A stretch of DNA of 64,000 bases from an uncultured Pirellulales bacterium. GTDB taxonomy: Bacteria; Planctomycetota; Phycisphaerae; Sedimentisphaerales; Anaerohalosphaeraceae. Within the stretch, counting starts at the first letter, position 1, and each line of letters starts with the position of its first letter. Positions 5,398 to 56,455 of the stretch are shown piece after piece. The stretch covers positions 100,078 to 164,077 of the forward strand of contig CAZVPF010000002.1 in NCBI GenBank assembly GCA_964628195.1. The letters run 5' to 3'. The notes beneath the pieces are model-generated. The model ran no database searches, had not been told where the DNA came from, and was given only the letters and a program-made list of their open reading frames with translations. A program made the position numbers and the translations under genes.

Positions 5398-5406
5398 AGA
5401 AAAGGT

Positions 5407-15219: not shown

Positions 15220-16772
15220 TTAAGGCACAAATATTATTAAATACAGCCATGCTTTTATACGGCAGCATTTTAGCAATGGCATATTCGGATAAATTCAGCT
15301 TTATGCTTATGCCGACAATATCATGGCTGAGTTCGTGGCTGGTACTGACATGTGCATATATTTTCCTCTCGATAACGGGATTGATAATTAGCCCGATTTT
15401 AGTCGTTGCCTTCCTTGTCGCAGCAGCAGCGTTATTTATTATAGTATCACGCCACAGATTGATTGCCAATCTGAAAGCCACTTTCGGCGACAGGGACAGG
15501 CTTAAAAGGCTTGTTATTTTATATTTTGTATGTTTGTTATTCATTTTTTTGATAACAATTAAGCTGCATTATGTTTTCGCAACACCAGACTCCCTTCAGT
15601 ATAATGCTTTCTCGAAAATCTTTCATTACTACGCACATTTTGAACGGGGCAATTCAAGAGTTTTTGTTTTTGCTCACAGCGTGCGTCTGCCTTTTATTTC
15701 TGCTGTTCAAAATTTTGCTTATTTACTTGGGATTGGTGCATATACTTCATTTTTTCCGGTGACATCTTTCTTTGTCATAATATTGGTCTTGTTTTTCCTG
15801 TTTGACAAAATCAGTATACGGGAAAAACCCGCCGCCGGGCTCACGTGGTTTTCCATATCAGCCCTTTTATTGCTCTTCAATCGAAACTATCTTCTTCACA
15901 GTTTTTACTATCACAGTAATTTGACCGTAGCGGCTTACTTTTCAGCAGGAGTTTTTCTTTCACTTCTTTATCTTCGCCGCGAAGAGCCGATTTATTTTTT
16001 TTTCTCTTCCGGCCTTCTTGCCTCGACCGTACTTATCCGCAAAGAAATGCTTATTTTCTCCTTGATACCGATTTTCCTCACATTGTATTTTTTCAAACCA
16101 TATCGAGCTAAAATACGTTTCTCGGCTTTAGCATTATTCCTTGTGATTGGTTATCCGTGGTTTTTATGGGGTATTTTTAAGTTGCTTGAGTGGGGAAGTT
16201 TTTCATTCAAGAATTTTTCTTCAGGGCATGGCTCATTCTATCTGCCTATATTGACTTTAGCCTGCACCTTTGCTGCTTTTTTACTGCCTGTTCCAAAGTT
16301 TTTTCGCAAGAACAGTATCAAACTATCTCTTGTTTCATCTGCACTTTTTTTTCTCATATTGTATTTTCTAAATGGTTCGAGATTAATCGGTTCATTGCGG
16401 GATTTGCTTTCACTTGCCCTTGCCGGCAAAGGCAGATGGCAGCTTTTCTGGTATTGCTTCACTTTTGCGACAGCCATATATATATTAATTATTTATTTAA
16501 AAAGCAAACCCAAAGCGTCACTTTTAGAACATGAGTACAAACCTCTATGCGGACTGAAGTTTGTATTGTCGGTAATCATTGTCTTTTTTGCTTTAAGAAT
16601 TGTTTTGTATTCGATTTTCACTGCCCCAAAAGCAAATGCTTATCTTGCCAGCGGAAACAGAATACTTCTGCATATTTTTCCAATCGCAGTATATTTTTGT
16701 GGATGCGTTGGGTATTCATTTTCATTAATCGCCTCCCGTTTGAGCAAACAGCAAATATTACAATCAAACTGA
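15216..16772 (+). CDS. polytopic membrane protein, GT-C-like (ArnT/PMT/GtrC-like) putative glycosyltransferase
   Basis: 518 aa with 12 or more predicted TM helices and no soluble domain. It lies immediately upstream of a GtrB/ArnC-like GT2. The start is TTG 15216 or ATG 15249. The call rests on topology and context, not a strong motif. Confidence 0.45.
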   Translation: MIKAQILLNTAMLLYGSILAMAYSDKFSFMLMPTISWLSSWLVLTCAYIFLSITGLIISPILVVAFLVAAAALFIIVSRHRLIANLKATFGDRDRLKRLVILYFVCLLFIFLITIKLHYVFATPDSLQYNAFSKIFHYYAHFERGNSRVFVFAHSVRLPFISAVQNFAYLLGIGAYTSFFPVTSFFVIILVLFFLFDKISIREKPAAGLTWFSISALLLLFNRNYLLHSFYYHSNLTVAAYFSAGVFLSLLYLRREEPIYFFFSSGLLASTVLIRKEMLIFSLIPIFLTLYFFKPYRAKIRFSALALFLVIGYPWFLWGIFKLLEWGSFSFKNFSSGHGSFYLPILTLACTFAAFLLPVPKFFRKNSIKLSLVSSALFFLILYFLNGSRLIGSLRDLLSLALAGKGRWQLFWYCFTFATAIYILIIYLKSKPKASLLEHEYKPLCGLKFVLSVIIVFFALRIVLYSIFTAPKANAYLASGNRILLHIFPIAVYFCGCVGYSFSLIASRLSKQQILQSN

Positions 16773-17695: not shown

Positions 17696-19114
17696 ATGAA
17701 AGTGATGCTAATCTCACAGCCGGGCAAAGAAACCATCAAAAGCGATCTGGCAAAGCTGATCCATGAAGAAAGAGGTGTGAACCCGCCCATCGGGCTTCTT
17801 TACGTTGCAGCTTCCATAAAACAATGGTCCGGGCATGAAGTAAAAGTAGTTGACGCAGCAGTGGATAATTTGTCGGTCGAACAGATTAAGAGCGAAGTTG
17901 AATCTTACTGGCCGGATGTGGTTGGTATGACGCTTACCACTTTCTCTTTGATTGAAAGTATAAGCATAGCCAAAGCAATTAAACAGTTAAACAGCGACAT
18001 AAAGATCATTGCAGGGGGCATACATATTTATATTTACCCCGAGGAAACGCTGAAACTGGGGTGTTTCGATTACGGCGTGCTCGGCGAAGCAGAAAATATA
18101 ATCTGCCCCTTGCTTGACTGCATAGAGAAAGGCATTGAGCCCTCGCAAGTAAAAGGTGTTGTATACAAAGCAGATGGCGGTGTTCATTACACAGGCGAGC
18201 CCAGACTGCTTGAAGACCTAGACAGCATACCTTTTCCGGATCGGACTATGCTGCCTTACAAAAAGTACAATTCGATAGTTGCAAAGCATAACCCTGTAAG
18301 TATTATGATTACCAGCCGGGGTTGTCCGTACGGCTGCATATTCTGCGATAGGCCGCATTTAGGCAAAAGGTTTCGCATGCGTTCTGCGGAAAACGTTGTT
18401 GACGAGTTCGAGGAATGCTACAAATTAGGAATCGGGGAGATTCTGGTGTATGATGACACTTTTACACTGAATTCTCAACGGGTGATTGACATCTGCGAAG
18501 GTCTGGTCGATAGGGGGATTAATATTTCATGGGGAATAAGAGCAAGGGTGGACACTGTAAACGAAAAGATGATAAAGGCTCTTAAAAAAGCCGGCTGTGT
18601 CAGGGTGAACTACGGTGTTGAATCCGGCAGCCCGGATATCTTAAAAACTCTTAACAAGGGGATAACCCTTGAACAGGTTGAAAAGGCCTTTGCAATGACC
18701 CGAAAGTTTGGAATAGACACACTTGCTTATTTCATGATTGGCTGCCCCGGAGACACACTTGAAACGATCGAACGTACTCAGGAGATTGCCAAAAAGATTA
18801 AGCCTTCATACGCGCACTTTACAATTTTGATGCCTTTCCCTGCTACCAAAATATACACCGATGCCGTTGATAACAAAATTATCAGCAGTGATGTTTGGAG
18901 GGAATTTGCAGAGAGCCCTCAAAGTGATTTTGAGATACCGGTTTATGAAGAAAGTTTCAAACGGGAGGAACTAATAGACCTGCTCACAAAATGTAATAAA
19001 TCTTTCTACCTGAGGCCGACCTTCGTAATTCGAGAATTATTCAAAAAAAAGCAGTTCGACCAGGTTTTCAAAGAGATAAAGGTTGCCTGGCGTCTTTTAT
19101 TCAAGGGAAAATAA
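17696..19114 (+). CDS. B12-binding-domain radical SAM enzyme (class B)
   Basis: The N-terminus is a Rossmann-like cobalamin-binding region (PPIGLLYVAASIK...VVGMT...IIAGGIH). It is followed by the radical SAM cluster motif SRGCPYGCIFC. Confidence 0.9.
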   Translation: MKVMLISQPGKETIKSDLAKLIHEERGVNPPIGLLYVAASIKQWSGHEVKVVDAAVDNLSVEQIKSEVESYWPDVVGMTLTTFSLIESISIAKAIKQLNSDIKIIAGGIHIYIYPEETLKLGCFDYGVLGEAENIICPLLDCIEKGIEPSQVKGVVYKADGGVHYTGEPRLLEDLDSIPFPDRTMLPYKKYNSIVAKHNPVSIMITSRGCPYGCIFCDRPHLGKRFRMRSAENVVDEFEECYKLGIGEILVYDDTFTLNSQRVIDICEGLVDRGINISWGIRARVDTVNEKMIKALKKAGCVRVNYGVESGSPDILKTLNKGITLEQVEKAFAMTRKFGIDTLAYFMIGCPGDTLETIERTQEIAKKIKPSYAHFTILMPFPATKIYTDAVDNKIISSDVWREFAESPQSDFEIPVYEESFKREELIDLLTKCNKSFYLRPTFVIRELFKKKQFDQVFKEIKVAWRLLFKGK

Positions 19115-19117: not shown

Positions 19118-19696
19118 ATGTCCGAAAAAGTCAGGGATGGAGCTCTAAGTGGATTGCTGAGAACCTTAAGATTTAGAGAAGTTGTTCCACACATTAAGGG
19201 CAGAAGAATACTGGACATCGGCTGTGACCAGGGCTATATCATACCGCATCTTCCTGATGACATCGAATACATAGGCATAGATCAGGATGAGCATATGCTT
19301 GGCAAGGCAAGAATAAAATATCCGGATCACATTTTTTACAAAATCGAAATAAATGCAGATACTGTCGGAACAGTTGAACTCGGGACTTTTGATACTATAC
19401 TTATGGTTGCGGTAATAGAACATATGGACCAGCCGTTTGAGATACTGACAGGATTAAGCAGCTTCCTGAATGTAAACGGAAGGATAATCATAACTTCACC
19501 TGCAGAAAAAGGCCACGGTTTACTGAGCGGTTTGAGCTGTTTGGGCCTGACAAGAAATGACAAAGATGAACATGAATCATATATTGATAATGCAATGATG
19601 TCTGGATTTATTGCGGAAAGCAGCCTCGAAGGAATCTTGCATAAAACATTTGAATTTGGTTTGAATCAGTTATGGGTTTTGAAAAAGAATAACTAA
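19118..19696 (+). CDS. class I SAM-dependent methyltransferase
   Basis: Motif I ILDIGCDQG, followed by YIGIDQDEHML and ILMVAVIEHM. Confidence 0.8.
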   Translation: MSEKVRDGALSGLLRTLRFREVVPHIKGRRILDIGCDQGYIIPHLPDDIEYIGIDQDEHMLGKARIKYPDHIFYKIEINADTVGTVELGTFDTILMVAVIEHMDQPFEILTGLSSFLNVNGRIIITSPAEKGHGLLSGLSCLGLTRNDKDEHESYIDNAMMSGFIAESSLEGILHKTFEFGLNQLWVLKKNN

Positions 19697-19730: not shown

Positions 19731-20774
19731 ATGTTTTATATAGCTAAATCAAATCACAATATTTATACCGGCTTTTCAAATTACGAAGAATTCAACCAGC
19801 AAGACAGAAAAATTCGCGCAGAGTCAGAGTTAGAAAAGTGGGGACAAGAGGCTGATATTTTCAGAAAATATCGTCTAAAATGGAAAAAAGCCGCTGAAGA
19901 AGATTTTCTGCCTGAGCATCCTCTAAATGTGGACATTGAGCTTTCCGATATTTGCAACCTGAGATGCAAGATGTGTGCGCAGGGCATGGGAACAGTTCGA
20001 GGAGCGGGTTTTATGAGTAATGATATTGTTTGTAATATCATTGACCAATGTGCCCAAACAGGTGTTTATTCGATTAAGTTCAATTGGCGAGGTGAGGCTA
20101 CGCTAAATCCATTCCTGCCCGAAGCGATCAGCTATGCAAAGAAAAAGGGTATTCTTGAAGTGCAGATCAACACCAACGGACTTCCTTCACAAAAAGATAT
20201 TATCATTGAATGCGCTGAGAATGGGCTTGACAGGGTCATTTTCTCGGTTGACGGGTTCTCAAAACAGACCTATGAAAGTATCCGAATAAACGGCAGTTAT
20301 GAGCGGCTGCTTGAAAATATTCACAATCTTATTGACTGGAAAAAAAATTCTGCAGGTTCAAAGCCCCATGTAAGGGTTCAAATGGTACGTACCAAACAAA
20401 ATGCACATGAAGTGGAAGATTTTATCGAATACTGGCAGCAGCTGGTTGACGATGTGCGGATAAGTGATGTTATGGATCGCGGGCAAGGCGGAGATCTCAC
20501 CGTGGCAGACCAGGTCGTTACGGGAAGACGAAGGTGTCCACAACCTTTCCAGAGACTTACGATCGGCAGGGACTGCAGGGTTAGCCCCTGCTGCGCAGAC
20601 TGGGACCAGGAATTTATTCTTGGCGATATTCGTCAAAACACATTGATGGAGATGTGGCAGTGTGAGATGATCAATGATTTACGCGAAAAACTCAGAAATA
20701 TACAGCATCACAAGATTAAAATTTGCAGAAGCTGTCCTGTTAAAGAAAGTTACATTTGGCGAAAAATAAAGTAA
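19731..20774 (+). CDS. radical SAM / SPASM-domain enzyme
   Basis: CX3CX2C motif DICNLRCKMC. The C-terminal region is Cys-rich (RRRCPQPF...VSPCCADW...KICRSCP), as in SPASM/twitch auxiliary-cluster domains. Confidence 0.85.
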   Translation: MFYIAKSNHNIYTGFSNYEEFNQQDRKIRAESELEKWGQEADIFRKYRLKWKKAAEEDFLPEHPLNVDIELSDICNLRCKMCAQGMGTVRGAGFMSNDIVCNIIDQCAQTGVYSIKFNWRGEATLNPFLPEAISYAKKKGILEVQINTNGLPSQKDIIIECAENGLDRVIFSVDGFSKQTYESIRINGSYERLLENIHNLIDWKKNSAGSKPHVRVQMVRTKQNAHEVEDFIEYWQQLVDDVRISDVMDRGQGGDLTVADQVVTGRRRCPQPFQRLTIGRDCRVSPCCADWDQEFILGDIRQNTLMEMWQCEMINDLREKLRNIQHHKIKICRSCPVKESYIWRKIK

Positions 20775-23700
20775 AAATAATAGCCGAGATTGCTAATGCT
20801 CACCAGGGCAATCCTGAGTTGGCTTTGGAGTTAGCACGAGCAAGCATCGAGGCCGGTGCAGATGCTGTGAAGTTTCAGGTATATTTCGCTGAAGAGCTTT
20901 TGGTCGGCACGCATAGCCGTTTCGAACATTTCAAAAATCAGTCTTTTAGTGAAGATGACTGGGACAAAATTTTTGAAAAGGTATGCAAGTTTGGCTCAGA
21001 AGTGTATGCGGATGTTTTTGGAGCAAAAGCGATTGCTGTCGCTGCAAAATACGACCTGGATGGGTTGAAAATACATTCCTCTGATTTGACCAACACCAGC
21101 CTTCTCAATAAGGCGGCAAAGTATAAAAGAAAATTGTTTTTGGCTGTTGGGGGCAGCACAATTCTGGAAATTAAATACGCACTTGATCGGTTGGCCAATG
21201 CGGGCTGTTCCAGCCGGATTGTTCTAATGCATGGATTTCAGGCTTATCCCACCAAGGTCGAGCATGCAGCACTTTGCAGGCTCAAAATGCTTAAAGAATA
21301 CTTCGGAGATTCTGTTTCGCTCGGCTATTCGGATCATGCCGACGCGGAGACTGATTTTTCACTGTTTCTGCCGTTAATCTCGCTTCCATTCGAAGTTCGG
21401 TACATCGAAAAGCATGTTACGCTTGACCGTGCTTCCAGGGGGGTCGATTACTATTCTTCTTATGAGCCGGATGAGCTTGCAAATTTTATTGAATGTGTCA
21501 GGGTGGCTGAGAAAGCTATAGGTGATAAGCCTTTATGTTTTTCACAGTCCGAAAAAGTTTACAGGAAAACGGTAAAAAAACAGTGGGTCGCCGCCCGTGA
21601 CATGCAAAAAGGTGACGTTATAAATGAGTCGGACTTGGTCATGCTCCGTACCGAGGACTCTGTGAACGGCGCCGCTTATGAAAGTCTTATAGGCAGCAAA
21701 CTGGTTTGCGATGTCGCAAAAGAGCAGGTTATTTCCAGAAATGATATCAAAAACAGAATTTTAGCGGTAGTGGTAGCTCGTTCGGATTCGAGCAGGCTTC
21801 CCGGAAAGGCCGTCTGTCCGATCAACGGTGAGCCGGCCATAAGCCACTTGTTAAACCGCCTCGAAAGGGCCAAGGATAAAGGCTTTCTGGACACCATTGC
21901 ATTTTGCACCACAACAGAGCCCTCTGACGATAAACTTGTGACTATAGCCTCGAAGCACTCTTGTTTTGTGTACAGGGGTTCGGTCGAAGATGTGTTGGCA
22001 CGCATGATGCTGGCAATAGATGATCACCATGATCACAACATAGTGCTTCGCGTTACCGGCGACGACCTGTTGATTGATCCTGATTATCTGCATAAAACAA
22101 TTGAACATCACCTGAAAAGCAATGCACATTACACCGATGCAAAGCAGTTGCCAAGTGGAACGGAAGTTGAGGTTTTCGATTCTGAAATTCTCAAGCTTAT
22201 TTATGAATTATCACATGACAGCAGCGGTTCGGAATATTTGACAAATTACATAGTAAGTAACGCCGACCAGTTTCACCTGGCGAGTCTGCCTGTTCCAGGC
22301 AGGCATGCTAAAAACTACCGGTTGACCCTCGACACGAAACAGGACTACGAGGTCATAAAAAATATTCTGGAATATTTTGAATCGATCGGCCTGAAGTATG
22401 ATTACACACTGGATGACATTTGCGAGTATTTTGAGAATTACCCTAAGGCACAAGCCGCTAATCGAACCGTCAGGCAAAAAACAACGCCGTTGACAGTGGA
22501 TACGAGGATTAACTGGGGAAATTACACCCGTAGTCCGCTGGTCAGCGTATATATCGTGAACCATAACTACGGGAGCTATATAAAACAAGCCATCGATTCA
22601 ACGCTTAATCAAAAGTTCAGGGATTTTGAGGTAATTATTATTGACGATGGCTCGACCGATGATTCGAGGAAGGTCATTGAATGCTATCGGAATAACCCTC
22701 GGGTTTCGGTCGTTTACCAGGAAAATAAGGGCCTGAATGTAACCTGCAATATTGCCTTGAAGCTTTCAAAGGGAAAATACATCATGCGTCTCGACGCGGA
22801 TGATTACCTGGATGAAAACGCATTGCTTGTAATGGTCGAGAGGCTCGAACGACAGGAAAATGCGGCGATAATATTTCCGGATTATTATATTGTCGACCGG
22901 GACGGTAATATTCTTTCTCTCGAAAGAAGGCACGACTTCAGTCAAGTGGAACTCCTTGATCAGCCTGCCCATGGCGCATGTTCGTTGATAAGGAAATCCT
23001 GTCTGCTCGAAGCGGGTGGTTATAACGAGAAATATAATTGCCAGGATGGTTATGACCTCTGGTTTAAAATGACCAGGGATTATAGAGTCACAAATGTAAA
23101 TCTTCCGCTATTCTATTATCGCCGCCACGATAAAAACCTCACTTTGAAAGAGGACCGCCTTTTGTTCACCAGGCATGAACTTATAAAGGAGCACACAGCC
23201 GAATACAATATAAATAACAAAAAACACCTTTGTATTCTTCCAATCCGTGCTTTTCCCGATGGGAATTCACTTGCTGTCAGGCCTTTTGCAGGCTCGAGTC
23301 TTCTTGACTTAACGCTTGCGCAGATTCGGGAAAGTGAGAATGTAACTCAAACGGTAGTTACAAGCCCTGACAACAAAGTCCTCGATATTGCAGGAAAATA
23401 TGACTCAGACTTGGTTTTGACACTGGACCAAAGGCCGGTTGATTTGAGCGGATATAATACCCGTATAGAACAAACGGTGAATTATTTGCTTGAAAGGTAT
23501 TTTGCAGACATTGAATTTGACACGATAACGATTGTCAACTACGAGTACCCTTTTAGAAAGCCGATCTATATAGATAAGGCAATAAACACTCTCTATCTTT
23601 ATAACGTTGACGCTGTCATAGCAGTTGAACAGAAAAATGCGAATTATTATCAGCATTACGGCAATGGCCTCGTTCCCTTTAAGACAAACACGGAACTCAA

Positions 23701-23893
23701 TCTGGAAAGAGAGTTTATTTATGAAGAAGCTGGAGGAATTCACTGCATACGGTTTGATTCCTATCAGCGATACGGATCAATGCTGAGTGGCAAAATCGGA
23801 CATATAGTTATGGACCGTCTGAGCGTTAGAAAAGCCGAGTGTGAAATTGACTTTGAGATGCTTGAAATGTTATTTAAAAAGAGCGTTAAATGA
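20756..23893 (+). CDS. four-domain fusion: NeuB-family sugar-acid synthase (with SAF) + SpsF/PseF-like cytidylyltransferase + GT2 glycosyltransferase + NeuA-like (degenerate) cytidylyltransferase domain
   Basis: aa 5-330: IIAEIANAHQG...GADAVKFQ...LGYSDH plus a SAF-like tail. aa 334-560: ILAVVVARSDSSRLPGK...VTGDDLLIDP. aa 594-800: VSVYIVNHNY...IIIDDGSTDDS...RLDADD. aa 824-1040 is NeuA-like and ends ECEIDFEMLEMLF. TTG start, 19 nt overlapping the upstream gene; one uninterrupted ORF. Confidence 0.8.
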   Translation: MAKNKVKIIAEIANAHQGNPELALELARASIEAGADAVKFQVYFAEELLVGTHSRFEHFKNQSFSEDDWDKIFEKVCKFGSEVYADVFGAKAIAVAAKYDLDGLKIHSSDLTNTSLLNKAAKYKRKLFLAVGGSTILEIKYALDRLANAGCSSRIVLMHGFQAYPTKVEHAALCRLKMLKEYFGDSVSLGYSDHADAETDFSLFLPLISLPFEVRYIEKHVTLDRASRGVDYYSSYEPDELANFIECVRVAEKAIGDKPLCFSQSEKVYRKTVKKQWVAARDMQKGDVINESDLVMLRTEDSVNGAAYESLIGSKLVCDVAKEQVISRNDIKNRILAVVVARSDSSRLPGKAVCPINGEPAISHLLNRLERAKDKGFLDTIAFCTTTEPSDDKLVTIASKHSCFVYRGSVEDVLARMMLAIDDHHDHNIVLRVTGDDLLIDPDYLHKTIEHHLKSNAHYTDAKQLPSGTEVEVFDSEILKLIYELSHDSSGSEYLTNYIVSNADQFHLASLPVPGRHAKNYRLTLDTKQDYEVIKNILEYFESIGLKYDYTLDDICEYFENYPKAQAANRTVRQKTTPLTVDTRINWGNYTRSPLVSVYIVNHNYGSYIKQAIDSTLNQKFRDFEVIIIDDGSTDDSRKVIECYRNNPRVSVVYQENKGLNVTCNIALKLSKGKYIMRLDADDYLDENALLVMVERLERQENAAIIFPDYYIVDRDGNILSLERRHDFSQVELLDQPAHGACSLIRKSCLLEAGGYNEKYNCQDGYDLWFKMTRDYRVTNVNLPLFYYRRHDKNLTLKEDRLLFTRHELIKEHTAEYNINNKKHLCILPIRAFPDGNSLAVRPFAGSSLLDLTLAQIRESENVTQTVVTSPDNKVLDIAGKYDSDLVLTLDQRPVDLSGYNTRIEQTVNYLLERYFADIEFDTITIVNYEYPFRKPIYIDKAINTLYLYNVDAVIAVEQKNANYYQHYGNGLVPFKTNTELNLEREFIYEEAGGIHCIRFDSYQRYGSMLSGKIGHIVMDRLSVRKAECEIDFEMLEMLFKKSVK

Positions 23894-24903
23894 ACTGTTT
23901 TAAGGGAAAATACGGTCCTTATATTATTGCCGAGATAGGCGGCAATCATGAAGGAGATTTTGAGTATGCAAAACGGCTGACAGAGCTTGCCGTAAGGTCC
24001 GGTGCCGATGCGGTTAAATATCAGTTATACACCGGCGATTCCCTTGTCAACAGGCTTGAGGATTTGGATCGCAACAAACATTTTAAAAAATTTCAGTTGA
24101 GAGACGAGCAGTATATCGAACTTGCTGAGATTTGCAGCTCCTTTGGCGTCACGTTTATGGCTTCAGTATGGAACATCGATGCTTTTGATTTTATCGATCC
24201 TTACATGAAAGTATATAAGATCGGGTCGGGTGACTTGACCGCTTACAACGTTATTAAACGCACGGTCGAAACAGGAAAGCCGATAATTATGTCCACTGGC
24301 CTTTCCACAATGACTGAAGTTCTCGAAACTGTTAAGTTTATTACTGGGCTTGATAAAAGCTATATCACAGACAGGAAACTGGCACTGATGCAGTGTTCGG
24401 CTATGTATCCTATACCGGATGAAGATGCAAATTTGAATGTTATGCTCTCATTGAGAGAAAAGACTTCTCTGCCTGTAGGCTATTCCGATCACACTTTAGG
24501 AACTGATGCACTTGAGACGGCTGCTGCGATGGGGGCTGAAATCCTTGAGATGCATTTTACAGACACCAGGCAGCACAAAACTTTCAGGGACCATAAGATC
24601 GCATTAACAGCCCCTGAGATAGAAAACTTGATTGAAAAGATTAAAAAAATATATTTGCTCCAGGGAAACTACGATAAAAAGCCGGTAACTTCCGAAATTC
24701 AGGCAGGTCATGTCATTTCTTTTCGGCGTGGGGTTTATCCGCTGACAGATTTACCTGCGGGCCATAAGATTGATAAAACTGACCTTGTGACTTTAAGGCC
24801 TTGTCACGGGATCGGAGCAAATCACTTTTATGAAATTGTAGGCAAAACTTTGAAAATAGATGTAAAAAAGCTTCAGCTTTTAGGATGGAATATGTTTGAT
24901 TAA
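23890..24903 (+). CDS. NeuB-family nonulosonic-acid synthase (NeuB/PseI/LegI-like) with SAF domain
   Basis: Canonical YIIAEIGGNHEGDFEYAKRL...GADAVKYQ...VGYSDHTLG motifs and a C-terminal SAF-like region. ATGA overlap with the upstream fusion gene. Confidence 0.9.
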   Translation: MNCFKGKYGPYIIAEIGGNHEGDFEYAKRLTELAVRSGADAVKYQLYTGDSLVNRLEDLDRNKHFKKFQLRDEQYIELAEICSSFGVTFMASVWNIDAFDFIDPYMKVYKIGSGDLTAYNVIKRTVETGKPIIMSTGLSTMTEVLETVKFITGLDKSYITDRKLALMQCSAMYPIPDEDANLNVMLSLREKTSLPVGYSDHTLGTDALETAAAMGAEILEMHFTDTRQHKTFRDHKIALTAPEIENLIEKIKKIYLLQGNYDKKPVTSEIQAGHVISFRRGVYPLTDLPAGHKIDKTDLVTLRPCHGIGANHFYEIVGKTLKIDVKKLQLLGWNMFD

Positions 24904-24927
24904 TTTTTTTATGAGGATAGAAAGCCA

Positions 24928-25971
24928 ATGAAATGCCTCGACGAACTGATTAGTATTTCCGAATCATTTTATGAAAAGTGCGACAGCTTAGTCCAGAAGC
25001 ATCCATGGGCCGTATGTATCGCAATGCACGAGTATGCGAGAAATTTATATCCAGCGGACCCTTATATACCTTTTTCATCGGGACAAAGCTCTACCGAAAG
25101 AGTTTATCAGGTGACAGTCAACTTGATTGATTTTTTAAATAAGACTGCTGTGATTGGAAATTATGAAACGAGAGCGTATACTGATATCATTGATGCTGAA
25201 GTAAAAGAGAAGACCGGTGATGTATACGGTAGTTTTTGGGAAACTTTCTCATACGAAGATCTTACAGAAAATGCAATCAATATTTTAAAAGACCGATGGA
25301 TAAAAAATGGATTTGATTTAAAACTGATTGAGGGAAAAAAAGCCATCGATATTGGTTGCGGATCAGGACGATATACTTTCGCCCTGAGAAAGCTGGGCTG
25401 TAAACATGTAACAGGGGTTGACTACGGAGACCGGGGCCTGGAGGTTGCGAAAAAGATTATTAAGCAAAGTGGGATTGACAATATAGACTTTGAAAAAGCG
25501 AATATTCTGGATCTTCCCTTCGAAAATGCAGCTTTTGATTTTGTATTTTGCCACGGAGTTCTTCATCATACCGAAGATATGGAAAAAGGACTGTCCGAAA
25601 TGATCCGTGTTGCCGCACCCGGGGCAACAATATGGCTGTATATATACGGCGATGGCGGTATATTCTGGCATGCCCGCAAACGAATGCCTCAGGTTATGAA
25701 GAAAATACCTCAGCCTTACACAATGAAAGTTCTCAATTTGATCGGTATGCCGTCAAATCGCTTTATATTCGCCGACAACTGGTATGTTCCTATTGAAAGA
25801 CATACCACCGATAAGCAGGCAAGGGACATTCTGAAAAAGTTGGGAATAAAAAAGATCGAAAGAAAAGTTCATGGTCGCCCAACCGACCTCGATTATCTTT
25901 CTATGAATGGGGGTGAAGAAGGCAAAATTATGTGGGGCGATGGTGAGCTAAGTTATTTTTTGGAAAAATAA
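24928..25971 (+). CDS. class I SAM-dependent methyltransferase with ~130-aa N-terminal extension
   Basis: Motif I AIDIGCGSGRYT, VTGVDYGDRGLEVAKK and FDFVFCHGVLHHTED. Confidence 0.8.
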   Translation: MKCLDELISISESFYEKCDSLVQKHPWAVCIAMHEYARNLYPADPYIPFSSGQSSTERVYQVTVNLIDFLNKTAVIGNYETRAYTDIIDAEVKEKTGDVYGSFWETFSYEDLTENAINILKDRWIKNGFDLKLIEGKKAIDIGCGSGRYTFALRKLGCKHVTGVDYGDRGLEVAKKIIKQSGIDNIDFEKANILDLPFENAAFDFVFCHGVLHHTEDMEKGLSEMIRVAAPGATIWLYIYGDGGIFWHARKRMPQVMKKIPQPYTMKVLNLIGMPSNRFIFADNWYVPIERHTTDKQARDILKKLGIKKIERKVHGRPTDLDYLSMNGGEEGKIMWGDGELSYFLEK

Positions 25972-25976
25972 GATTT

Positions 25977-27050
25977 ATGCCGGAACAAATGACACAGAAT
26001 AAAATATCTGATTTCGGGTTTAAGGTTTTCCAAATAGAAATCAACAGTAGTTGCAACATGCAATGTTCCTTTTGCGCTTATCCTTTGCGTTCGGTGCCGA
26101 AAATGAACATGGATTTGGAGCAGATAAAACACATTATTGACCAAGCCGCCGAAGACGGTTCATTAAGATTTGTTGCTTTTCAGCATTATGGTGAGCCCCT
26201 GCTTCACAAGAGCCTCTTTGAAGCTATCGACTACGCCCGTGAAAAAGGCGTCAAATCCCAGGTTATCACAAATTGCCTTCTTTTGACAGATGATATTGTT
26301 GACAAATTGTTGACTCATTCGCCGGATATTCTGCGCCTCTCATTTCATACAACTGATCAAGAGCTTTATCAAAACACAAGAGGTTCAAATTTGCCTTTTC
26401 ATGAGTATCGTAACAGGATAGAGCGTTGTGCTGTTAAAATATTGACGCAGAGAAATAACATCAAAGAATGCCGGATTGATATAGCTTGCGCCCCTCGAAT
26501 AAAATCAGTAACTAAAAAAATAAAACAAAAATTCTTCAATCAAAATCCTGGTGTAATTATTACTAAACGCATTGAAGATATTGAGGGCTCTGTTCGATCA
26601 TTTGCTGCTGATATTGCAGCCCGGGCATGTTTGACTTTTGATGGCGACCAGTTTAAAAGAAATGTTAGCGATTACAAAAAAAGCTGCAAATCAGCCAGTG
26701 TGTTATATAAATTCAATGATATTATGTCGTTAACAGTGAAAAGACATATTGACGGCAGACGGATGTTTCATAACATACCTGTACAATATGGAAAGTGCAG
26801 TACCAATACAATCGGGATATTGCCGGACGGGAGAATAACACTTTGTTGCCTGGACTGCGACGGTTGGACCTCGATCGGCAACGCGTTTGAAGATAAAATT
26901 ATTAACCTTTTAAGGCAAAATAGCGACCTGATAAGTCAGATTCGTAAAGGACCACGAATCCCGTTCGAGCCTTGTCAGCGATGCCAGGGTTACTCAAAAA
27001 GACCAGCTTCCTTTGCTCACGATTTTTTAAAAAGAATTCATTTACGATGA
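25977..27050 (+). CDS. radical SAM enzyme with C-terminal Cys-rich (SPASM/twitch-like) region
   Basis: CX3CX2C motif NSSCNMQCSFC. C-terminal Cys-rich stretches: KCSTN...ITLCCLDCDGW...FEPCQRCQGY. Confidence 0.8.
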   Translation: MPEQMTQNKISDFGFKVFQIEINSSCNMQCSFCAYPLRSVPKMNMDLEQIKHIIDQAAEDGSLRFVAFQHYGEPLLHKSLFEAIDYAREKGVKSQVITNCLLLTDDIVDKLLTHSPDILRLSFHTTDQELYQNTRGSNLPFHEYRNRIERCAVKILTQRNNIKECRIDIACAPRIKSVTKKIKQKFFNQNPGVIITKRIEDIEGSVRSFAADIAARACLTFDGDQFKRNVSDYKKSCKSASVLYKFNDIMSLTVKRHIDGRRMFHNIPVQYGKCSTNTIGILPDGRITLCCLDCDGWTSIGNAFEDKIINLLRQNSDLISQIRKGPRIPFEPCQRCQGYSKRPASFAHDFLKRIHLR

Positions 27051-27100: not shown

Positions 27101-28087
27101 ATGTCAGTTTTCTTTCACATCGGCATGGGCAAAGCCGGGTCAACTTATTTGCAGCAGCAGGTCTTTCCTAATCTCAAAGGGATAACTTATGTCGATCATT
27201 TCCGATATGACAATCCAGTCAGCAGTATTTTGCTCAAACTGTATTATGAGCAAAACCCATGGAAGTCGAATTCGACAGAAGACAAAGAGAAAGCGAATTT
27301 ATTTTTAACTTCTGTTGAGAACAAGCTTTTCAGCTGGGAAAGCATTGTTGGAAACCCGTACGCTAATTTTCATAATCATTTTCTGCTTGCAGATGCGCTC
27401 AAGGAAATTTGCCCTGAGGGGAAGATTATACTTATAATTAGAAAGCAGGACGATTATATTCATTCTCAGTATATGCAGGCTGTTCAAATGGGTTCGGCAT
27501 TTAGCATACGTTATTTTATGAATTACAGCAGCGGTAATTTCGGCACATACACCCCGCCGCCCTGGAAGAAGGCAAATCTTGACGTAAGAATATTAAACTA
27601 TATGAATTTTCTTGACACTTACATTAAGAGATTTGGTAAAGAGAATGTCTTGGTTCTGCCATTTGAACTGATGAAAGAGAATCCGAAAACATTTATTAAA
27701 AAAATTGAAGCATTTACCGGCAGTACCTATAGTGAAGAAAGCTCACAGAAGTTATACGGCATACATAATAAAAGTTATTCTCTGCTTTCATATTATATCG
27801 CAATTATTACTAACGGAATAACCGACCCAACATGTCCTTCTGTGATAAGGTTTGTCAGGAACATCCTGTCTAAGCTGTTTTCAATATGTACTCAATGTTC
27901 CGGCAGAAAGAAGTCTTCTTTTGGCCTTCGTCATGTTCTTCAAAACGGTCTCGATAGAGTTTTTTATATCAGGCCCAATCTTTTAAGCTCCGAACAGCGA
28001 AAGGCAATACTGTCTTTTCATAAAGAATCCAATAAACAGTTGGATGCTTTATATGGTCTTGAACTCAAGAAATACGGTTATTACTGA
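27101..28087 (+). CDS. sulfotransferase-like protein
   Basis: N-terminal 5'-PSB-like loop FFHIGMGKAGSTYLQ and a 3'-PB-like LIIRKQDDYIHSQY, matching PAPS-dependent sulfotransferase motifs. Motif-level evidence only. Confidence 0.55.
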   Translation: MSVFFHIGMGKAGSTYLQQQVFPNLKGITYVDHFRYDNPVSSILLKLYYEQNPWKSNSTEDKEKANLFLTSVENKLFSWESIVGNPYANFHNHFLLADALKEICPEGKIILIIRKQDDYIHSQYMQAVQMGSAFSIRYFMNYSSGNFGTYTPPPWKKANLDVRILNYMNFLDTYIKRFGKENVLVLPFELMKENPKTFIKKIEAFTGSTYSEESSQKLYGIHNKSYSLLSYYIAIITNGITDPTCPSVIRFVRNILSKLFSICTQCSGRKKSSFGLRHVLQNGLDRVFYIRPNLLSSEQRKAILSFHKESNKQLDALYGLELKKYGYY

Positions 28088-28097: not shown

Positions 28098-29945
28098 ATG
28101 TGCGGTTTTACGGGTATAGTTTACTCCGATTCATCCCGGACCATCGACCCTGACACCTACACTCGGTTGACGGAGATTCTTTCTCATCGTGGACCGGACA
28201 ATCTGGGCTGTTTCAGGGATGATAGAATCGACTTGATACACCATCGCCTTTCTATTATTGACCCGACCGACCAGGCCAATCAGCCAATGAAGGACCCGAA
28301 TACAGGAAATGTCGTAGTTTTTAACGGCGAAATATATAACTATAAAGAACTTAAGTCTCAGCATAATGACATTCACTGGCATACAAATTCTGACACAGAG
28401 GTTATACTTAAGTTATACCAACGACTGGGTAAAAGTTTTGTTAATAAGCTTAATGGGATTTTTGCTTTTGCAATTTATGATAATGTGCAAAAATGTGTTT
28501 TACTGTATCGCGACCGTTTCGGGATAAAACCCCTGCATTATATTAACACACAATCTGGGTTCGCGTTTTCTTCCGAAATCAAACCGCTGCTTCAGCTTAT
28601 TCGGCCTGAATATGACCGAACTGTTATTTTTGATTACCTTGAGTATGGACGCTTGGCACATGACCAGCGGACCTTCTTTAGAGGTGTCTGCAGTCTCAAA
28701 CCGGCCCATTATATGAAGTATGACTTTGAAAAAGGAAGTATCTCCACAGTCAGGTATTGGGACATAAAAGACGACAACTCTTTGAGTAACTTATCGAATG
28801 AGCAGATAGTGGAAAGGACGTATACGGAACTTCAAAAAGCTATACGCCTTAATATGGTAAGTGATGTCGAAGTGGCAGTCAGTTTAAGCAGTGGGGCCGA
28901 TTCAACGCTTATTCTGAGACTTGCTCAGCAGCAAACTGCACAAATAAAGGCTTTCACATTCGGCTTTGAAGAGGATGCCTACGACGAAGTGAGCCGTATA
29001 AAAGACCAAGATAGCCTAAAGGGTATCGAATTGCATCCGGTCTATCTCAGGCCCGGTCAAATGCTGGAGCTGCTGAAGCAGGCCGTCTACTACTTTGAAA
29101 CACCTTTAGGAGGACTAGGCACTTTATCGGCATACAATATGATGAAAGAGGTCCGGCGAAAGGGAATCAAGGTGATGTTGGCTGGTGAGGGTGCGGATGA
29201 GATATTCGGCGGATATCAATATTATTTCCCTGCATACTTTAAAGACCTGGAGTACGACAATGAGTTGCTGTATAGAGAAGTGGAAGATTATGCCAAAGCA
29301 CACGGGATCAAAATGAAACCTTTTTGCCAGGCTTATAATGAGTTGATCAAAACAGTCAACTCAAAAACTGTGCTGGCGCCTGATGGCACCGGTTCTTCAA
29401 ACAGCCATGCAAGTTCGGATTTAAGGGCTGAGTTTAAGCAAGACGCTTTAGTCTCTGGTCCGGCCATATTTAAAAGCTGTCTTATTTGTGAAATGTACCG
29501 GGACCTTACAGAAAAGAAGCTGCCGAAACTGTTGCATTTTCAGGACCGAGCAGGAATGGCCGGCGGCATTGAAACAAGGGTTCCTTATCTGGACCATAAC
29601 CTTGTAGAGTTTATTTATGCTTTGGGTAACCGTTGCAAAATATATCGGGGACAAAGCAAGTATTTATTGAAGGCCGTGCTTAAGCGTTATTTTGATTATA
29701 CAGAACCTAAAAAGACAAAACATTATGTGGCAACCCCTCAACGGGAATGGCTGAAAACTACGTCTCTTGCAAAGGAGATACTGGAAACATTGCGCTTTGG
29801 CTGGCTTGTTGAAGAGGGACTTATAGACTTTAAGTTGTTCGAAAGGGATTATAACGCATATATATCTCAGCCGGAACTTGGGAATTCCTTTTTTGTATGG
29901 AAGCTTATCAACCTTGAGTATCTTTTGGGACAAAAATGGAATTAG
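28098..29945 (+). CDS. asparagine synthase (glutamine-hydrolysing) family amidotransferase, glycan-locus paralog
   Basis: N-terminal nucleophile MCGFTGIV, Ntn-amidotransferase body, PP-loop VSLSSGADST, and a 615-aa length. Confidence 0.9.
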   Translation: MCGFTGIVYSDSSRTIDPDTYTRLTEILSHRGPDNLGCFRDDRIDLIHHRLSIIDPTDQANQPMKDPNTGNVVVFNGEIYNYKELKSQHNDIHWHTNSDTEVILKLYQRLGKSFVNKLNGIFAFAIYDNVQKCVLLYRDRFGIKPLHYINTQSGFAFSSEIKPLLQLIRPEYDRTVIFDYLEYGRLAHDQRTFFRGVCSLKPAHYMKYDFEKGSISTVRYWDIKDDNSLSNLSNEQIVERTYTELQKAIRLNMVSDVEVAVSLSSGADSTLILRLAQQQTAQIKAFTFGFEEDAYDEVSRIKDQDSLKGIELHPVYLRPGQMLELLKQAVYYFETPLGGLGTLSAYNMMKEVRRKGIKVMLAGEGADEIFGGYQYYFPAYFKDLEYDNELLYREVEDYAKAHGIKMKPFCQAYNELIKTVNSKTVLAPDGTGSSNSHASSDLRAEFKQDALVSGPAIFKSCLICEMYRDLTEKKLPKLLHFQDRAGMAGGIETRVPYLDHNLVEFIYALGNRCKIYRGQSKYLLKAVLKRYFDYTEPKKTKHYVATPQREWLKTTSLAKEILETLRFGWLVEEGLIDFKLFERDYNAYISQPELGNSFFVWKLINLEYLLGQKWN

Positions 29946-31273
29946 TTAAAACAGGTAATTACATAAAGGATATCGAGTCAAAACATTTTGACAAAATCAC
30001 CAAGCTGAATTTTGGAAAATTCAATGTTTGGCAAATTTACAGAAACTTTCTTATATATAGATTTATGAAAGCAAAAAACTCTTCACAAAAACCGGCTTCC
30101 AAAAGAACTGAAAGTTTGATTAGTTTCTTTTTTCAAATGTATAAAAAAAGGAAGTATCTGAAGAATAAACATATATTATATTCGACTTCTGCGAATTATG
30201 ATAAAAAGGAAGGCGAAAGACTTGCCTCAACGGTTCTTATGAGTTTAGCCAACGAGATCGGTGAGGATAAAGTTTATGTTATTGCAACTGATAAGTATGA
30301 TATTGAACAGCACGAATCCTTTCCAAAGATTGAATTTAATGACTTTACACTTAATAAAATGCGCTTTTCTCCTTTTATTTGTGTTTTTTTATTTCCCGCC
30401 ATATTCCGGCATTTCAGAGCGCTGAAAAACTTTTTAGATGTCAGTTTTTCCAAAGTTGCAATTCTGCTCGCCGGTTTTTTTGAAAAGCATCTTTATTATA
30501 ATATAATGTTGTGGATCATTAAGCCCGCAAGTCTGTTTTTTTACAGGTCTTCATATGGAAGCGAGGCGTTAATATCTGCTGCAAAGGCTCAAGGTATAAA
30601 AGTGTATGAATACCAGCACGGACAGTTGTACAAAGAGCATTATGGATATAATTTTTGCAGATCACTGCTTGGAATTAAAAACAAGATGATTCTTCCGGAC
30701 AAATTACTTTTATACGGGGAGTATTGGAAAGAAGTTTTGAAAGAAGAAGGTTTTTTCGATGATAAAGATGTGATTGTGTGTGGTCATCCGACCCTGCACG
30801 ATGCAGGCAAGATAGATTTTGATATAAATTATGAACAGATAGCGGTATTTTCCTCGCCTTATGCTGCCGAAAAGTTAATAAAATTTATCGATCGTTATAT
30901 AAATAATTCAGATTATGCCTGTGATTATCAGTGGATAATCAAATGCCATCCCCGCGAAAATAAGCAACTATGGCAGGAACTTGCTGATAAGCATCAACAA
31001 GTTCAGGTCATATCTAAAAGCACTTATGATATATTGAATTCGGTGAAAATTATTTTATCAGCTTCCCCTTCTATAATATATGAATCGACTTATTTTGGAA
31101 ATTCTGTATACGCTTTTTTTCCGGGTGTTGACCTTGATAATTCGCAAAGCTGGGCCTTTCCTGAATGTAACAGGATTGAAGAAGGCTTTCTGGGCCATTT
31201 TGAAAAAAACAAACAAGTGGATGTTTCCGAAAAATACTATAAGGGACTTGCTCTCCAACAAATATTTTCTTAA
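29936..31273 (+). CDS. hypothetical protein (possible GT-B-like transferase)
   Basis: 445-aa ORF coupled to its neighbours by a 10-nt overlap upstream. I recognised no confident family. It contains EEG (LKEEGFF) and two HP dipeptides (CGHPTL, IIKCHPRENK), reminiscent of bacterial sialyltransferase D/E-D/E-G and HP motifs. Confidence 0.5.
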   Translation: MELVKTGNYIKDIESKHFDKITKLNFGKFNVWQIYRNFLIYRFMKAKNSSQKPASKRTESLISFFFQMYKKRKYLKNKHILYSTSANYDKKEGERLASTVLMSLANEIGEDKVYVIATDKYDIEQHESFPKIEFNDFTLNKMRFSPFICVFLFPAIFRHFRALKNFLDVSFSKVAILLAGFFEKHLYYNIMLWIIKPASLFFYRSSYGSEALISAAKAQGIKVYEYQHGQLYKEHYGYNFCRSLLGIKNKMILPDKLLLYGEYWKEVLKEEGFFDDKDVIVCGHPTLHDAGKIDFDINYEQIAVFSSPYAAEKLIKFIDRYINNSDYACDYQWIIKCHPRENKQLWQELADKHQQVQVISKSTYDILNSVKIILSASPSIIYESTYFGNSVYAFFPGVDLDNSQSWAFPECNRIEEGFLGHFEKNKQVDVSEKYYKGLALQQIFS

Positions 31274-31297: not shown

Positions 31298-32026
31298 ATG
31301 ATTTTCAAGAAACTAAAAAATCATATTTGCAATTACAACCTTAATCGTGCTTATTTCAAAAAATTTGACGCCTCTGTCAGCGGCAATTTTTTAAGAAAAA
31401 AAGATCTTGTAAAAGACAGCATAAATATCGGTAAAAAGTCGCTGGTCTATAAGAACAGGATATCCGGTAAAGTAAGTATTGGAAGTTATTGTTCCATATC
31501 CCACGCCATTATCAGGGCCTCTGATGAAACCGAGGTGAGGATTGGCTCTTACTCGATAATACAGGGAGGACAGTCTCAGATCGTCTCTAAAATTAATGAT
31601 ATAACAATAGGGAAATTTTGCACTATTGGCTTTGGAGCTGTAATTATTGGTTACAGCCATCGAACTGACACTTACACCTATTCACTGCTCGACAAGCGGA
31701 TTTTGGGTGGTAGAACTGCGAATTTCTGTTCATTTGGTGATATACAAATTGGCCATGACTGCACCATCGGCATGTATTCCTTTATCATGCCCGGAGTCTC
31801 TTTAGGTAACGGGTGTATCGTCCTGCCGAACAGCGTAGTGACTTCCTCTTTTGAGCCGTATACGATTATTGCCGGAAATCCAGCTGTTAAAGTCGGCATT
31901 CGTTTTAGTCAAAAGAAGATTGATTATTTGAACACAATTAACTGGTATGAATGGCCGCATGAAAAAATCGTTTCAAATATTTACAAACTCAATAAGAGAG
32001 TCAGAGAAAGTAATGAATTTGATTGA
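31298..32026 (+). CDS. left-handed beta-helix (hexapeptide-repeat) acyl/acetyltransferase
   Basis: Repeated [LIV]-G-x-x-x-x hexapeptides (IGSYCSI, IGSYSII, IGKFCTIGFGAVI, IGHDCTIGMYSFI, LGNGCIVLPNSVV). It also has a GNPAVKVGIRF...INWYEW tail like the Vat/CatB-type subfamily. Confidence 0.8.
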   Translation: MIFKKLKNHICNYNLNRAYFKKFDASVSGNFLRKKDLVKDSINIGKKSLVYKNRISGKVSIGSYCSISHAIIRASDETEVRIGSYSIIQGGQSQIVSKINDITIGKFCTIGFGAVIIGYSHRTDTYTYSLLDKRILGGRTANFCSFGDIQIGHDCTIGMYSFIMPGVSLGNGCIVLPNSVVTSSFEPYTIIAGNPAVKVGIRFSQKKIDYLNTINWYEWPHEKIVSNIYKLNKRVRESNEFD

Positions 32027-32038
32027 AAGAGCGGCCCT

Positions 32039-36322: not shown

Positions 36323-36323
36323 G

Positions 36324-56436: not shown

Positions 56437-56455
56437 ATAAAGAACGGAGCAAGCA

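Follow-up and report, generated by a model that had tools for sequence, protein, structure and literature searches.

Between 19.7 and 27 kb, the 64-kb stretch of contig CAZVPF010000002.1 from an uncultured Pirellulales bacterium (hereafter the window, meaning that whole stretch; all positions are window coordinates) carries one copy of a widespread, uncharacterised gene cassette that is found in many bacterial phyla and in one archaeon. The cassette encodes two NeuB-type synthases (NeuB_A and NeuB_B), two cytidylyltransferase domains (CT1 and CT2), a GT2 glycosyltransferase domain and radical S-adenosylmethionine (SAM) enzymes, of which the window has two (rSAM1 and rSAM2), and it sits within a 37-kb surface-polysaccharide cluster. 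In our favoured reading, to which we give about even prospects, cassettes of this kind make cytidine monophosphate (CMP)-activated ulosonic sugars which are then tailored by the radical SAM enzymes, within a cluster for a surface polysaccharide. This reading builds on the gene content of the locus, the conservation of the cassette, the intact catalytic motifs of the synthases, their position in non-canonical clades and the BtrN type of the radical SAM enzymes.

Features were identified from open reading frame (ORF) calls together with Pfam and NCBIfam scans, and the ORF check agreed with the five genes that an earlier, sequence-only reading of this DNA had listed, all on the + strand. The first gene, rSAM1 (19731-20774), matches Pfam Radical_SAM and SPASM and has its CxxxCxxC motif at C75/C79/C82. 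It is followed by the gene for a 1045-aa fusion, NeuB_A-CT1-GT2-CT2 (20756-23893), whose domains were assigned with Pfam and NCBIfam. In this fusion NeuB_A occupies aa 1-332 (20756-21751; Pfam NeuB at aa 28-258, 7.7e-42, and SAF at 278-332), the SpsF-like CT1 domain aa 337-575 (21764-22480; CTP_transf_3 at 337-537, 2.6e-26), the GT2 domain aa about 590-820 (22523-23215; Glycos_transf_2 at 597-722, 1.6e-29) and the NeuA/PseF-like CT2 domain aa about 835-1045 (23258-23893; NCBIfam PseF model at aa 841-1041, 8.7e-10). NeuB_B, which has NeuB (1e-60) and SAF domains, is encoded at 23890-24903, a class I SAM methyltransferase of 347 aa (Pfam Methyltransf_31/11/25) at 24928-25971 and rSAM2, again with Radical_SAM and SPASM matches, at 25977-27050. 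Neighbouring genes here overlap or are spaced by 4-35 nt: the start at 20756 lies inside the gene ending at 20774, and the gene starting at 23890 overlaps the one ending at 23893.

The rSAM1 family profile was scanned over one genome per GTDB species, a set that does not include the species of the window, and the window proteins were used for tblastn and blastp searches; the loci recovered carry the prefix L below. Homologues of rSAM1 in metagenomes number in the hundreds. Thirteen loci have an rSAM with 40% identity or more to rSAM1; in 12 of them NeuB_A adjoins the rSAM gene, and wherever the contig is long enough these 12 loci have the order rSAM1, NeuB_A, CT1, GT2-CT2, NeuB_B, with the parts either fused or split. 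They come from Nitrospirota (including a Nitrospira and a Thermodesulfovibrionales metagenome-assembled genome, MAG), Cloacimonadota, three Omnitrophota, Desulfomonile, Magnetococcales, a Rhodospirillaceae MAG, one MAG recorded just as 'bacterium' without a phylum, and a Woesearchaeote. The same order was seen in SAR11-like marine contigs and in other metagenome contigs, for which the Pfam calls are those of the source. Since this gene order recurs across phyla, the arrangement goes far beyond chance. Synteny between L088 and the window runs from rSAM1 through rSAM2, the sulfotransferase, AsnB, the polysialyltransferase-like gene and the acyltransferase, and the L088 orthologue of the 24928 methyltransferase (69% identical) is kept together with rSAM2.

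Three fusion states of the cassette were found, namely a single protein of 1042-1047 aa, a NeuB_A-CT1 protein alongside a GT2-CT2 protein, and all genes separate. Such variable fusion of the parts is expected of proteins that work together. The fusions of 1042-1047 aa are present in independent assemblies (L003, L084, L088 and L092), which rules out that the 1045-aa fusion is an assembly artefact.

A reciprocal test was carried out by scanning metagenome contigs with a NeuB_A-CT1 profile, independent of any rSAM, and keeping those loci for which 1 kb or more of sequence lies upstream (n = 67). An rSAM1-type gene stands directly upstream in 40 of these, 11 of them rSAM1 orthologues and 29 members of a marine subfamily that is 27-32% identical to rSAM1. 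With 12 of 13 orthologue loci and 40 of 67 reciprocal loci, the pairing of a NeuB homologue with a radical SAM enzyme, which the sequence-only reading had pointed out, is real and evolutionarily conserved. The other 27 NeuB_A-CT1 loci have no upstream rSAM, and the rSAM is therefore a frequent, but not an obligatory, partner of NeuB_A.

The rSAM position is filled by a protein of about 458 aa in 11-12 of these rSAM-less loci (L100, L101, L105, L107 at 4583-5959, L108, L128, L132, L138 and L142-L144). This protein gave no match in Pfam or the PDB, and its sole similarity is a weak one (1.7e-7) to the 'BFO_1060 family glycosyltransferase' model. We read it as a transferase, which may act on a nonulosonic acid, and dropped the idea that it is a non-orthologous replacement of the rSAM.

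Adjacency to NeuB_A could also be a consequence of a large mixed cluster in which the rSAMs act on something else, be it a lipid, a peptide or a different sugar in the repeat unit. Tailoring genes of other kinds are indeed numerous in the cluster (five methyltransferases, along with sulfotransferases and an FkbH/acyl carrier protein (ACP) set), rSAM2 has just one detectable homologue besides itself among 5.8 billion proteins, and rSAM relatives below 30% identity are found in contexts without NeuB. Nevertheless, the rSAM1-NeuB_A adjacency is stable across phyla while the surrounding genes differ, and a cytidylyltransferase-rSAM fusion exists. Equally, no precursor-peptide genes were noticed among the called genes beside the rSAMs (no search was aimed at them), and the NCBIfam models for peptide maturases, including those of ribosomally synthesised and post-translationally modified peptides (RiPPs), all scored far below their cut-offs on the rSAMs. 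We consider it highly improbable that the rSAMs are unrelated neighbours of the synthases.

The two synthases are 25% identical to each other. Both were aligned to Neisseria meningitidis NeuB and Campylobacter jejuni PseI, using sequences from PDB alignments, and residues E25, K53, Q55, K129, H215, E234, H236, D247 and R314 (N. meningitidis numbering) are kept in both paralogues and in all full-length orthologues. As the catalytic residues are all kept, NeuB_A and NeuB_B are probably both active. NeuB_A has two invariant changes that are specific to its clade, T110 to D/E and N184 to Q, and this D110/Q184 signature is the same with or without an upstream rSAM.

On TIGR03569, the NeuB/LegI equivalog model, NeuB_A scored 189.2 bits and NeuB_B 248.7 bits, both below the cut-off of 399.65, and the LegI of L028 that served as a control scored 522.9 bits. 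Similarly, both synthases stayed below the cut-off of 340.25 bits of the PseI model TIGR03586 (NeuB_A 145.8 bits, NeuB_B 192.3 bits). In a bootstrapped neighbour-joining tree with a small reference set, N. meningitidis NeuB, C. jejuni PseI and four LegI sequences formed a 100% clade that excluded both window synthases; NeuB_A had a clade of its own with 99% bootstrap and NeuB_B belonged to a looser group. By these scores and by their position outside the reference clade, both synthases are non-canonical. We take the tree to indicate 'not canonical NeuB/LegI/PseI' rather than 'new product'.

CT1 scores 93.2 bits on CTP_transf_3 (cut-off 22.6), and its N-terminal Arg/Lys nucleotide-binding motif VVARSDSSRLPGKA is conserved. 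The motifs (V/A)RxxSxR(L/M)xxK(A/P), TGD(D/N)(P)LxD and RLTxDTxxD are conserved in 18 orthologues, and we take the last of these to be typical of SpsF-type cytidylyltransferases. The best PDB match of CT1 is 6oew (1.3e-23), deposited as 'Cytidylyltransferase'. CT2 was detected by the PseF model alone, with 38.6 bits against a cut-off of 205.7. In the alignment its IPAR-type motif is recognisable in distant orthologues and degenerate in the window's clade. CT2 is always joined to a GT2 domain, and the two form a separate protein of 450-470 aa in L087, L093, L009 and L001. The GT2 domain matches the A2 domain of chondroitin synthase (2z86) and the glycosyltransferase 6p61 in the PDB, and the motifs DDGSTDD and DADDY can be read from its sequence. 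Since the cassette has two synthases and two cytidylyltransferase families, two CMP-activated products would be the simplest reading of its domain composition.

In NeuB enzymes, which form domain-swapped dimers, each chain covers the active site of its partner with its SAF domain. It is conceivable from this architecture that NeuB_A and NeuB_B form an obligate hetero-oligomer producing a single ulosonic acid, with CT2 serving as a non-catalytic binding module for GT2. Both paralogues are indeed together in nearly every cassette; in L004 and L088, NeuB_B measures just about 228-234 aa and is without both the SAF domain and an R314 equivalent, and the N-terminal motif of CT2 is degenerate as described. 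Such an arrangement nevertheless appears quite improbable to us: every catalytic residue is kept in both paralogues and in all full-length orthologues, each paralogue is paired with its own cytidylyltransferase family, and several NeuB_A-CT1 loci with ample flanks show no NeuB_B. Because of the NeuB_B proteins without SAF in L004 and L088, we keep it as an alternative to two CMP-activated products.

rSAM1 and rSAM2 are 31% identical over the core. Across 70 family members the only invariant cysteines of rSAM1 outside CxxxCxxC are 269, 287, 288, 332 and 335, and the CX2CX5CX3C block of the seven-cysteine SPASM motif (CX9-15GX4C ... CX2CX5CX3C ... C) was not found in the rSAM1 family. With five invariant cysteines only and no such block, these enzymes are predicted to be of the Twitch type rather than true SPASM proteins. 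The Pfam SPASM model still matches rSAM1 (46.8 bits), and this model is expected to match Twitch-type domains too. BtrN (PDB 4m7t) was the top match of the rSAM1 family profile, at 9.5e-22, covering the radical SAM core and the C-terminal Twitch cysteines; the small-molecule rSAMs GDGT-MAS and BlsE came next, and then the peptide maturases CteB, SkfB and PqqE in the score range of MoaA, viperin and DesII. C269, C287, C332 and C335 align with four cysteines of the C-terminal stretch of BtrN, which we take to be the ligands of its Twitch auxiliary cluster. An AlphaFold (AF2) model of rSAM1 made from the 70-sequence alignment reached a pLDDT of 91.5, and its best Foldseek match was again BtrN (5.3e-13, TMt 0.73-0.78), with BlsE a close second. 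Where the sequence-only reading had assigned the rSAMs to the SPASM type, the cysteine pattern and the profile and fold matches thus point to a BtrN-like enzyme with one predicted auxiliary cluster (Twitch) and not a full SPASM domain. rSAM2, a divergent and rare paralogue, has the same C..CC..CxxC pattern, and its PDB matches to BtrN (2.9e-5) and BlsE (4.3e-5) are weak. At E <= 1e-30 the rSAM1 profile finds about 4,900 clusters made at 50% identity. We also considered the rSAMs as RiPP maturases, a reading that was rejected on their cysteine pattern, the model scores and the polysaccharide context.

At the second Twitch ligand position, all 15 of the 15 cluster-associated rSAMs that were aligned have a CC doublet, and BtrN has a single cysteine (PCF). 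The doublet is present in rSAM1 (C287-C288), in rSAM2 and in the rSAMs of L028, L085, L092, L001, L014, L015, L088, L097, L133, L151 and L167, with a Campylobacterota pair and the marine subfamily among those aligned. Its additional cysteine may donate hydrogen or serve as a further ligand. In radical SAM epimerases the hydrogen donor is a cysteine. Given this and the CC doublet, we infer that epimerisation would be as plausible for these rSAMs as a BtrN-type oxidation.

The locus had been described as lacking the canonical upstream enzymes for neuraminic (Neu), pseudaminic (Pse) and legionaminic (Leg) acids, and this holds for all 64 kb. Pfam scans of the major ORFs found no 4,6-dehydratase (Polysacc_synt_2/GDP_Man_Dehyd type), no DegT aminotransferase, no PseG-type family and no Epimerase_2 (NeuC/LegG) above cut-off in the window; the sole Epimerase_2 match was sub-threshold and lies on a GT4 glycosyltransferase (44104-45261). 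Equally, tblastn against the window (E <= 1e-5) gave no match to the LegB/LegC/LegH/LegG/PtmE-like set of L028 (Sulfurospirillum), nor to the short-chain dehydrogenase/reductase (SDR), DegT and PseG-like proteins of cassette-bearing relatives. The same query set found no canonical upstream genes in the flanks of L009, L010, L013, L088 and L092 (up to 10 kb, less at contig ends). Several cassette-bearing relatives do have SDR dehydratases and aminotransferases. The absence marks this locus and some relatives and is no general property of the cassette.

One explanation for the absence would be that rSAM1 acts before NeuB_A and uses radical chemistry (oxidation, deoxygenation or nucleotide elimination) on a common sugar or nucleotide-sugar, giving an unusual aldose. 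This would replace the dehydratase/aminotransferase/2-epimerase route and lead to a structurally new ulosonic acid. Besides the missing upstream genes in the window and in the five sets of flanks, it is consistent with the position of rSAM1 directly upstream of, and overlapping, NeuB_A and with the clade-specific changes D/E110 and Q184 in the active site of NeuB_A. In L087 and L093, moreover, rSAM1 lies between three SDR genes and NeuB_A in the same operon, the usual place of NeuC, LegG or PseG, none of which was detected there. Other evidence, however, argues against a precursor role. The 27 rSAM-less NeuB_A-CT1 loci have the same D110/Q184 signature and overlapping residue patterns, rSAM paralogues occur alongside complete legBCHIG sets, and fusions and operon partners tie the rSAM family to cytidylyltransferases, which act after the synthase.

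The link to cytidylyltransferases is seen in single polypeptides. The NCBIfam model TIGR04321 describes one chain in which positions 43-218 match CT1 and 224-502 match rSAM1, although the window proteins stay far below its cut-off of 250 bits (rSAM1 78.1, rSAM2 54.8 and the 1045-aa fusion 26.1 bits). Among the best matches of the rSAM1 profile in 1.84 billion representatives, P0280 is a CTP_transf_3 + rSAM fusion of the rSAM1 family. Other fusions in the set (P0280, P0349, P0273, P0387, P0299 and P0333) join the rSAM to a D-2-hydroxyacid dehydrogenase (P0349), to an FkbM methyltransferase (P0273) and to a weak MptE/Maf-like domain (P0387), and tandem double rSAMs were also seen among representatives of the rSAM1 family. 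The dehydrogenase-rSAM fusion P0349 would fit an epimerisation that oxidises and then reduces.

The link is also seen in operons. At least 10 Campylobacterota loci have an operon of a PtmE-like gene, an rSAM (288), a PseF-like cytidylyltransferase and a second rSAM (342), and in L024, L026, L028 and L060 this operon stands beside canonical leg genes. Complete legB/C/H/I/G was confirmed in L024 and L028; L026 gave no LegH match, and the contig of L060 ends within legC. Because the genes for CMP-legionaminic acid are already complete there, the Campylobacterota rSAMs add to the pathway rather than replace part of it. The cytidylyltransferase links, the complete leg sets and the rSAM-less NeuB_A loci with the same signature together favour, at the level of sequence, a role of the rSAMs as tailoring enzymes on the ulosonic acid or its CMP derivative over a role in precursor supply, which we regard as unlikely. 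The proposal in the sequence-only reading of rSAMs as substitutes for the absent upstream enzymes is therefore not favoured, with paralogues beside complete legB/C/H/I/G in Sulfurospirillum and relatives, with cassette-bearing relatives that carry SDRs and aminotransferases, and with 27 of 67 loci that lack the rSAM and keep the same active-site signature.

For the cassette as a CMP-sugar pathway with rSAM tailoring, the substrates, the order of the steps and the chemistry of the rSAM step are what we infer as follows. NeuB_A and NeuB_B, judging from their kept residues, would be phosphoenolpyruvate (PEP)-dependent aldol-type synthases, each condensing PEP with an aldose. In this organism the aldose would have to be supplied from beyond the locus or by common metabolism; a mannose-type sugar, for example, would give a Kdn-type acid. 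SpsF-like CT1 and NeuA/PseF-like CT2 would convert the products to CMP-sugars. rSAM1 and rSAM2 would then abstract hydrogen at a carbinol carbon of the sugar, either in the ulosonic acid itself or, with more likelihood, in its CMP derivative, resulting in oxidation or epimerisation. Further decoration would be carried out by the methyltransferases, a B12-binding radical SAM enzyme, the sulfotransferases and the AsnB-type amidotransferase. Finally, the GT2 domain and the polysialyltransferase-like protein would put the sugars on a lipid-linked glycan, to be handled by the ABC exporter and Wzy-type machinery.

Several points weigh against this pathway. rSAM1 is directly upstream of NeuB_A and translationally coupled to it, which fits a role before the synthase equally well. 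The divergent N-terminal nucleotide-binding motif of CT2 in the window's clade suggests that this domain might be a binding module rather than an enzyme, and GT2 enzymes are not known to act with CMP-sugars. The Foldseek E-value margin of BtrN over peptide-modifying SPASM enzymes is modest, and the reference set of the neighbour-joining tree did not include Kdn-9-P synthase, SpsE, or Aci and 8eLeg synthases.

The cassette is part of a long series of + strand genes that extends over about 12.8 to 50.2 kb, identified as a surface-polysaccharide cluster by the Pfam and NCBIfam scans. The cluster encodes GT2 and GT4 glycosyltransferases, a Wzy-like protein, a Bac_transf initiating transferase and a fused ABC exporter, and it also has five class I methyltransferases, sulfotransferases, an AsnB-type amidotransferase, a hexapeptide acyltransferase, a MaoC-SDR fusion and an FkbH-domain protein. 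Its G+C content (0.36-0.46 over 12000-50200) is below that of the flanks (0.46-0.53), which suggests horizontal acquisition. Promoter and terminator sites predicted between 12 and 31.5 kb were no more numerous than in shuffled sequence.

Upstream of rSAM1 on the + strand are the B12-binding radical SAM enzyme (class B; 17696-19114), with Pfam B12-binding and Radical_SAM domains and NCBIfam matches all far under their cut-offs, and a class I SAM methyltransferase of 192 aa (19118-19696; Pfam Methyltransf_12/23/31). Homologues of the B12-binding enzyme with 24-30% identity occur near the cassette in L001/L004, L006, L103, L106 and L130, and it is possibly a C- or O-methylase accessory to the cassette. 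Downstream of rSAM2, also on the + strand, lie a sulfotransferase (27101-28087; Pfam Sulfotransfer_1/3), which is 61% identical to its syntenic L088 counterpart, and the AsnB-type glutamine amidotransferase (28098-29945; TIGR01536 395.6 bits), whose homologues recur by the cassette in L003, L005/L084, L085, L088 and L092. The polysialyltransferase-like protein (29936-31273, + strand) has a weak match to Pfam A-2_8-polyST (PF07388; 6.8e-06, 26.3 bits against a cut-off of 23.3) and is, on this similarity, a candidate transferase using a CMP-sugar. It has orthologues in L088 and L005/L084, and a PF07388 protein also flanks the Campylobacterota rSAM operon. The ABC exporter (36309-38105, + strand) has fused transmembrane and nucleotide-binding domains and is HepA/MsbA/PglK-like (NCBIfam HepA_fam_ABC 2.1e-111, under its cut-off); homologues adjoin the cassette in L003, L005, L087, L092 and L093.

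At least two sulfotransferase genes are present in the window (27101-28087 and 39070-40911), one of them a double-domain protein of 613 aa, and an inositol-monophosphatase/CysQ-like gene lies upstream of the L088 cassette. The glycan probably carries sulfate groups in addition to heavy methylation. The FkbH-domain protein (34360-36105), the sole HAD-type protein in the cluster, is preceded by a MaoC-SDR fusion, a methyltransferase and the hexapeptide acyltransferase (stretch 31298-36105), and directly 3' of it is a 77-aa ACP-like ORF that contains the sequence TVDTWDSLRQMNL (36089-36322, + strand). This set looks like a cassette for a glyceryl- or hydroxyacyl-ACP side chain and, by analogy, recalls the N-glyceroyl or di-O-methylglyceroyl groups that decorate Pse and Leg. 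For two + strand ORFs at the start of the polysaccharide cluster (14581-15219, 212 aa, and 15216-16772, 518 aa), neither Pfam nor NCBIfam gave a match, and none of the fetched loci contains a homologue. Large proteins in the related clusters of three loci (L001 8092-10008, L002 11268-12593 and L091 2778-4754) match only the very recent Pfam families PF27859 'LIC12162' and PF27878 'PFTS_polysacc'. In the flanks of the cluster, a gene for an MMPL protein lies at 1499-4366, whose product is 64-66% identical to proteins of named MAGs and places the host near Sedimentisphaerales/Phycisphaerae (Planctomycetota), and two MttB-family methyltransferase homologues, an OpuAC-type glycine-betaine ABC transporter and a MarR regulator are encoded at 53355-60346 (+ strand). 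The latter region looks like a quaternary-amine demethylation locus unrelated to the NeuB/rSAM cassette.

Nonulosonic acids influence the surfaces and flagella of bacteria, their susceptibility to phages and their recognition by the immune system. To our knowledge, all characterised routes to them use NAD- and pyridoxal phosphate (PLP)-dependent chemistry, and a conserved rSAM partner would add a new reaction type. The rSAM1 family is large and is linked with two synthase clades that are uncharacterised. With three genes the cassette is compact, and it occurs in abundant environmental lineages (SAR11, Nitrospira, Omnitrophota and DPANN archaea). The view that the rSAM-NeuB pairing is undescribed was borne out in the literature searched, where no paper combined radical SAM with nonulosonic acid. 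Papers found for radical SAM with neuraminate synthase, pseudaminic or legionaminic acid mention these topics separately, and a large phylogeny paper on nonulosonic acid synthases makes no mention of fusion or radical. The nearest trace is an annotation table of phase-variable genes in Campylobacter fetus, which lists, uncommented, two 'MoaA/NifB/PqqE/SkfB family' rSAM genes that are near methyltransferase, SDR and formyltransferase genes by locus-tag number.

In a 2026 preprint, CMP-activated ulosonic acids with a C10 backbone were reported from Magnetospirillum, with no genes assigned. By analogy, a link of the cassette to these acids through the neighbouring B12-binding rSAM is conceivable. 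We consider it possible, though less likely than not, that the cassette produces an undescribed class of ulosonic acids, either through epimerisation or oxidation of a CMP-sugar by the Twitch rSAMs or through backbone extension by the B12-binding rSAM, and that it is a possible basis of unexplained environmental ulosonic acids. If so, the CC-motif Twitch enzymes would perform cofactor-independent epimerisation or oxidation, the cassette could be the genetic basis of, for example, the Magnetospirillum C10 CMP-ulosonic acids, and the two non-canonical synthase clades would define new sugar families widespread in uncultivated phyla and SAR11.

The canonical pathways (NeuB/NeuA, LegI/LegF, PseI/PseF and SpsE/SpsF of Bacillus subtilis) likewise pair a NeuB-fold synthase, complete with SAF domain and all catalytic residues, with a CTP_transf_3 cytidylyltransferase that follows it, and they likewise lie in a surface-glycan cluster with a polysialyltransferase-like transferase. 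In contrast to these, the window has two synthases, two cytidylyltransferases and a GT2 domain as one unit, often as one polypeptide, together with an rSAM partner, and its locus is without the set of dehydratase, aminotransferase, acetyltransferase plus hydrolase, and 2-epimerase.

The 'spiro-SPASM protein' model TIGR04321, which has no described function and no mention in the literature searched, has a cytidylyltransferase-like N-terminal part and an rSAM/SPASM C-terminal part in one chain, as in P0280, whereas CT1 and rSAM1 of the window are separate genes. BtrN, the 2-deoxy-scyllo-inosamine dehydrogenase of butirosin biosynthesis, likewise has a compact rSAM core followed by a C-terminal Twitch domain, although its identity to rSAM1 is about 14% in the structural alignment. 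An additional helical hairpin at the N-terminus (aa 23-56), in which Y47/R48 are conserved, distinguishes rSAM1 from BtrN, and the genomic context of rSAM1 is CMP-sugar biosynthesis rather than aminocyclitol biosynthesis. In L028 (Sulfurospirillum sp. SCADC), two CC-motif Twitch rSAMs flank a cytidylyltransferase (PseF model 188.5 bits against a cut-off of 205.7), with a polysialyltransferase-like gene alongside. The Campylobacterota rSAMs are 22-27% identical to rSAM1, and rSAM342 is 33% identical to rSAM2. These clusters differ from the window in having a canonical LegI (522.9 bits) and the full legB/C/H/G set, and they contain neither NeuB_A nor GT2-CT2 nor a second synthase.

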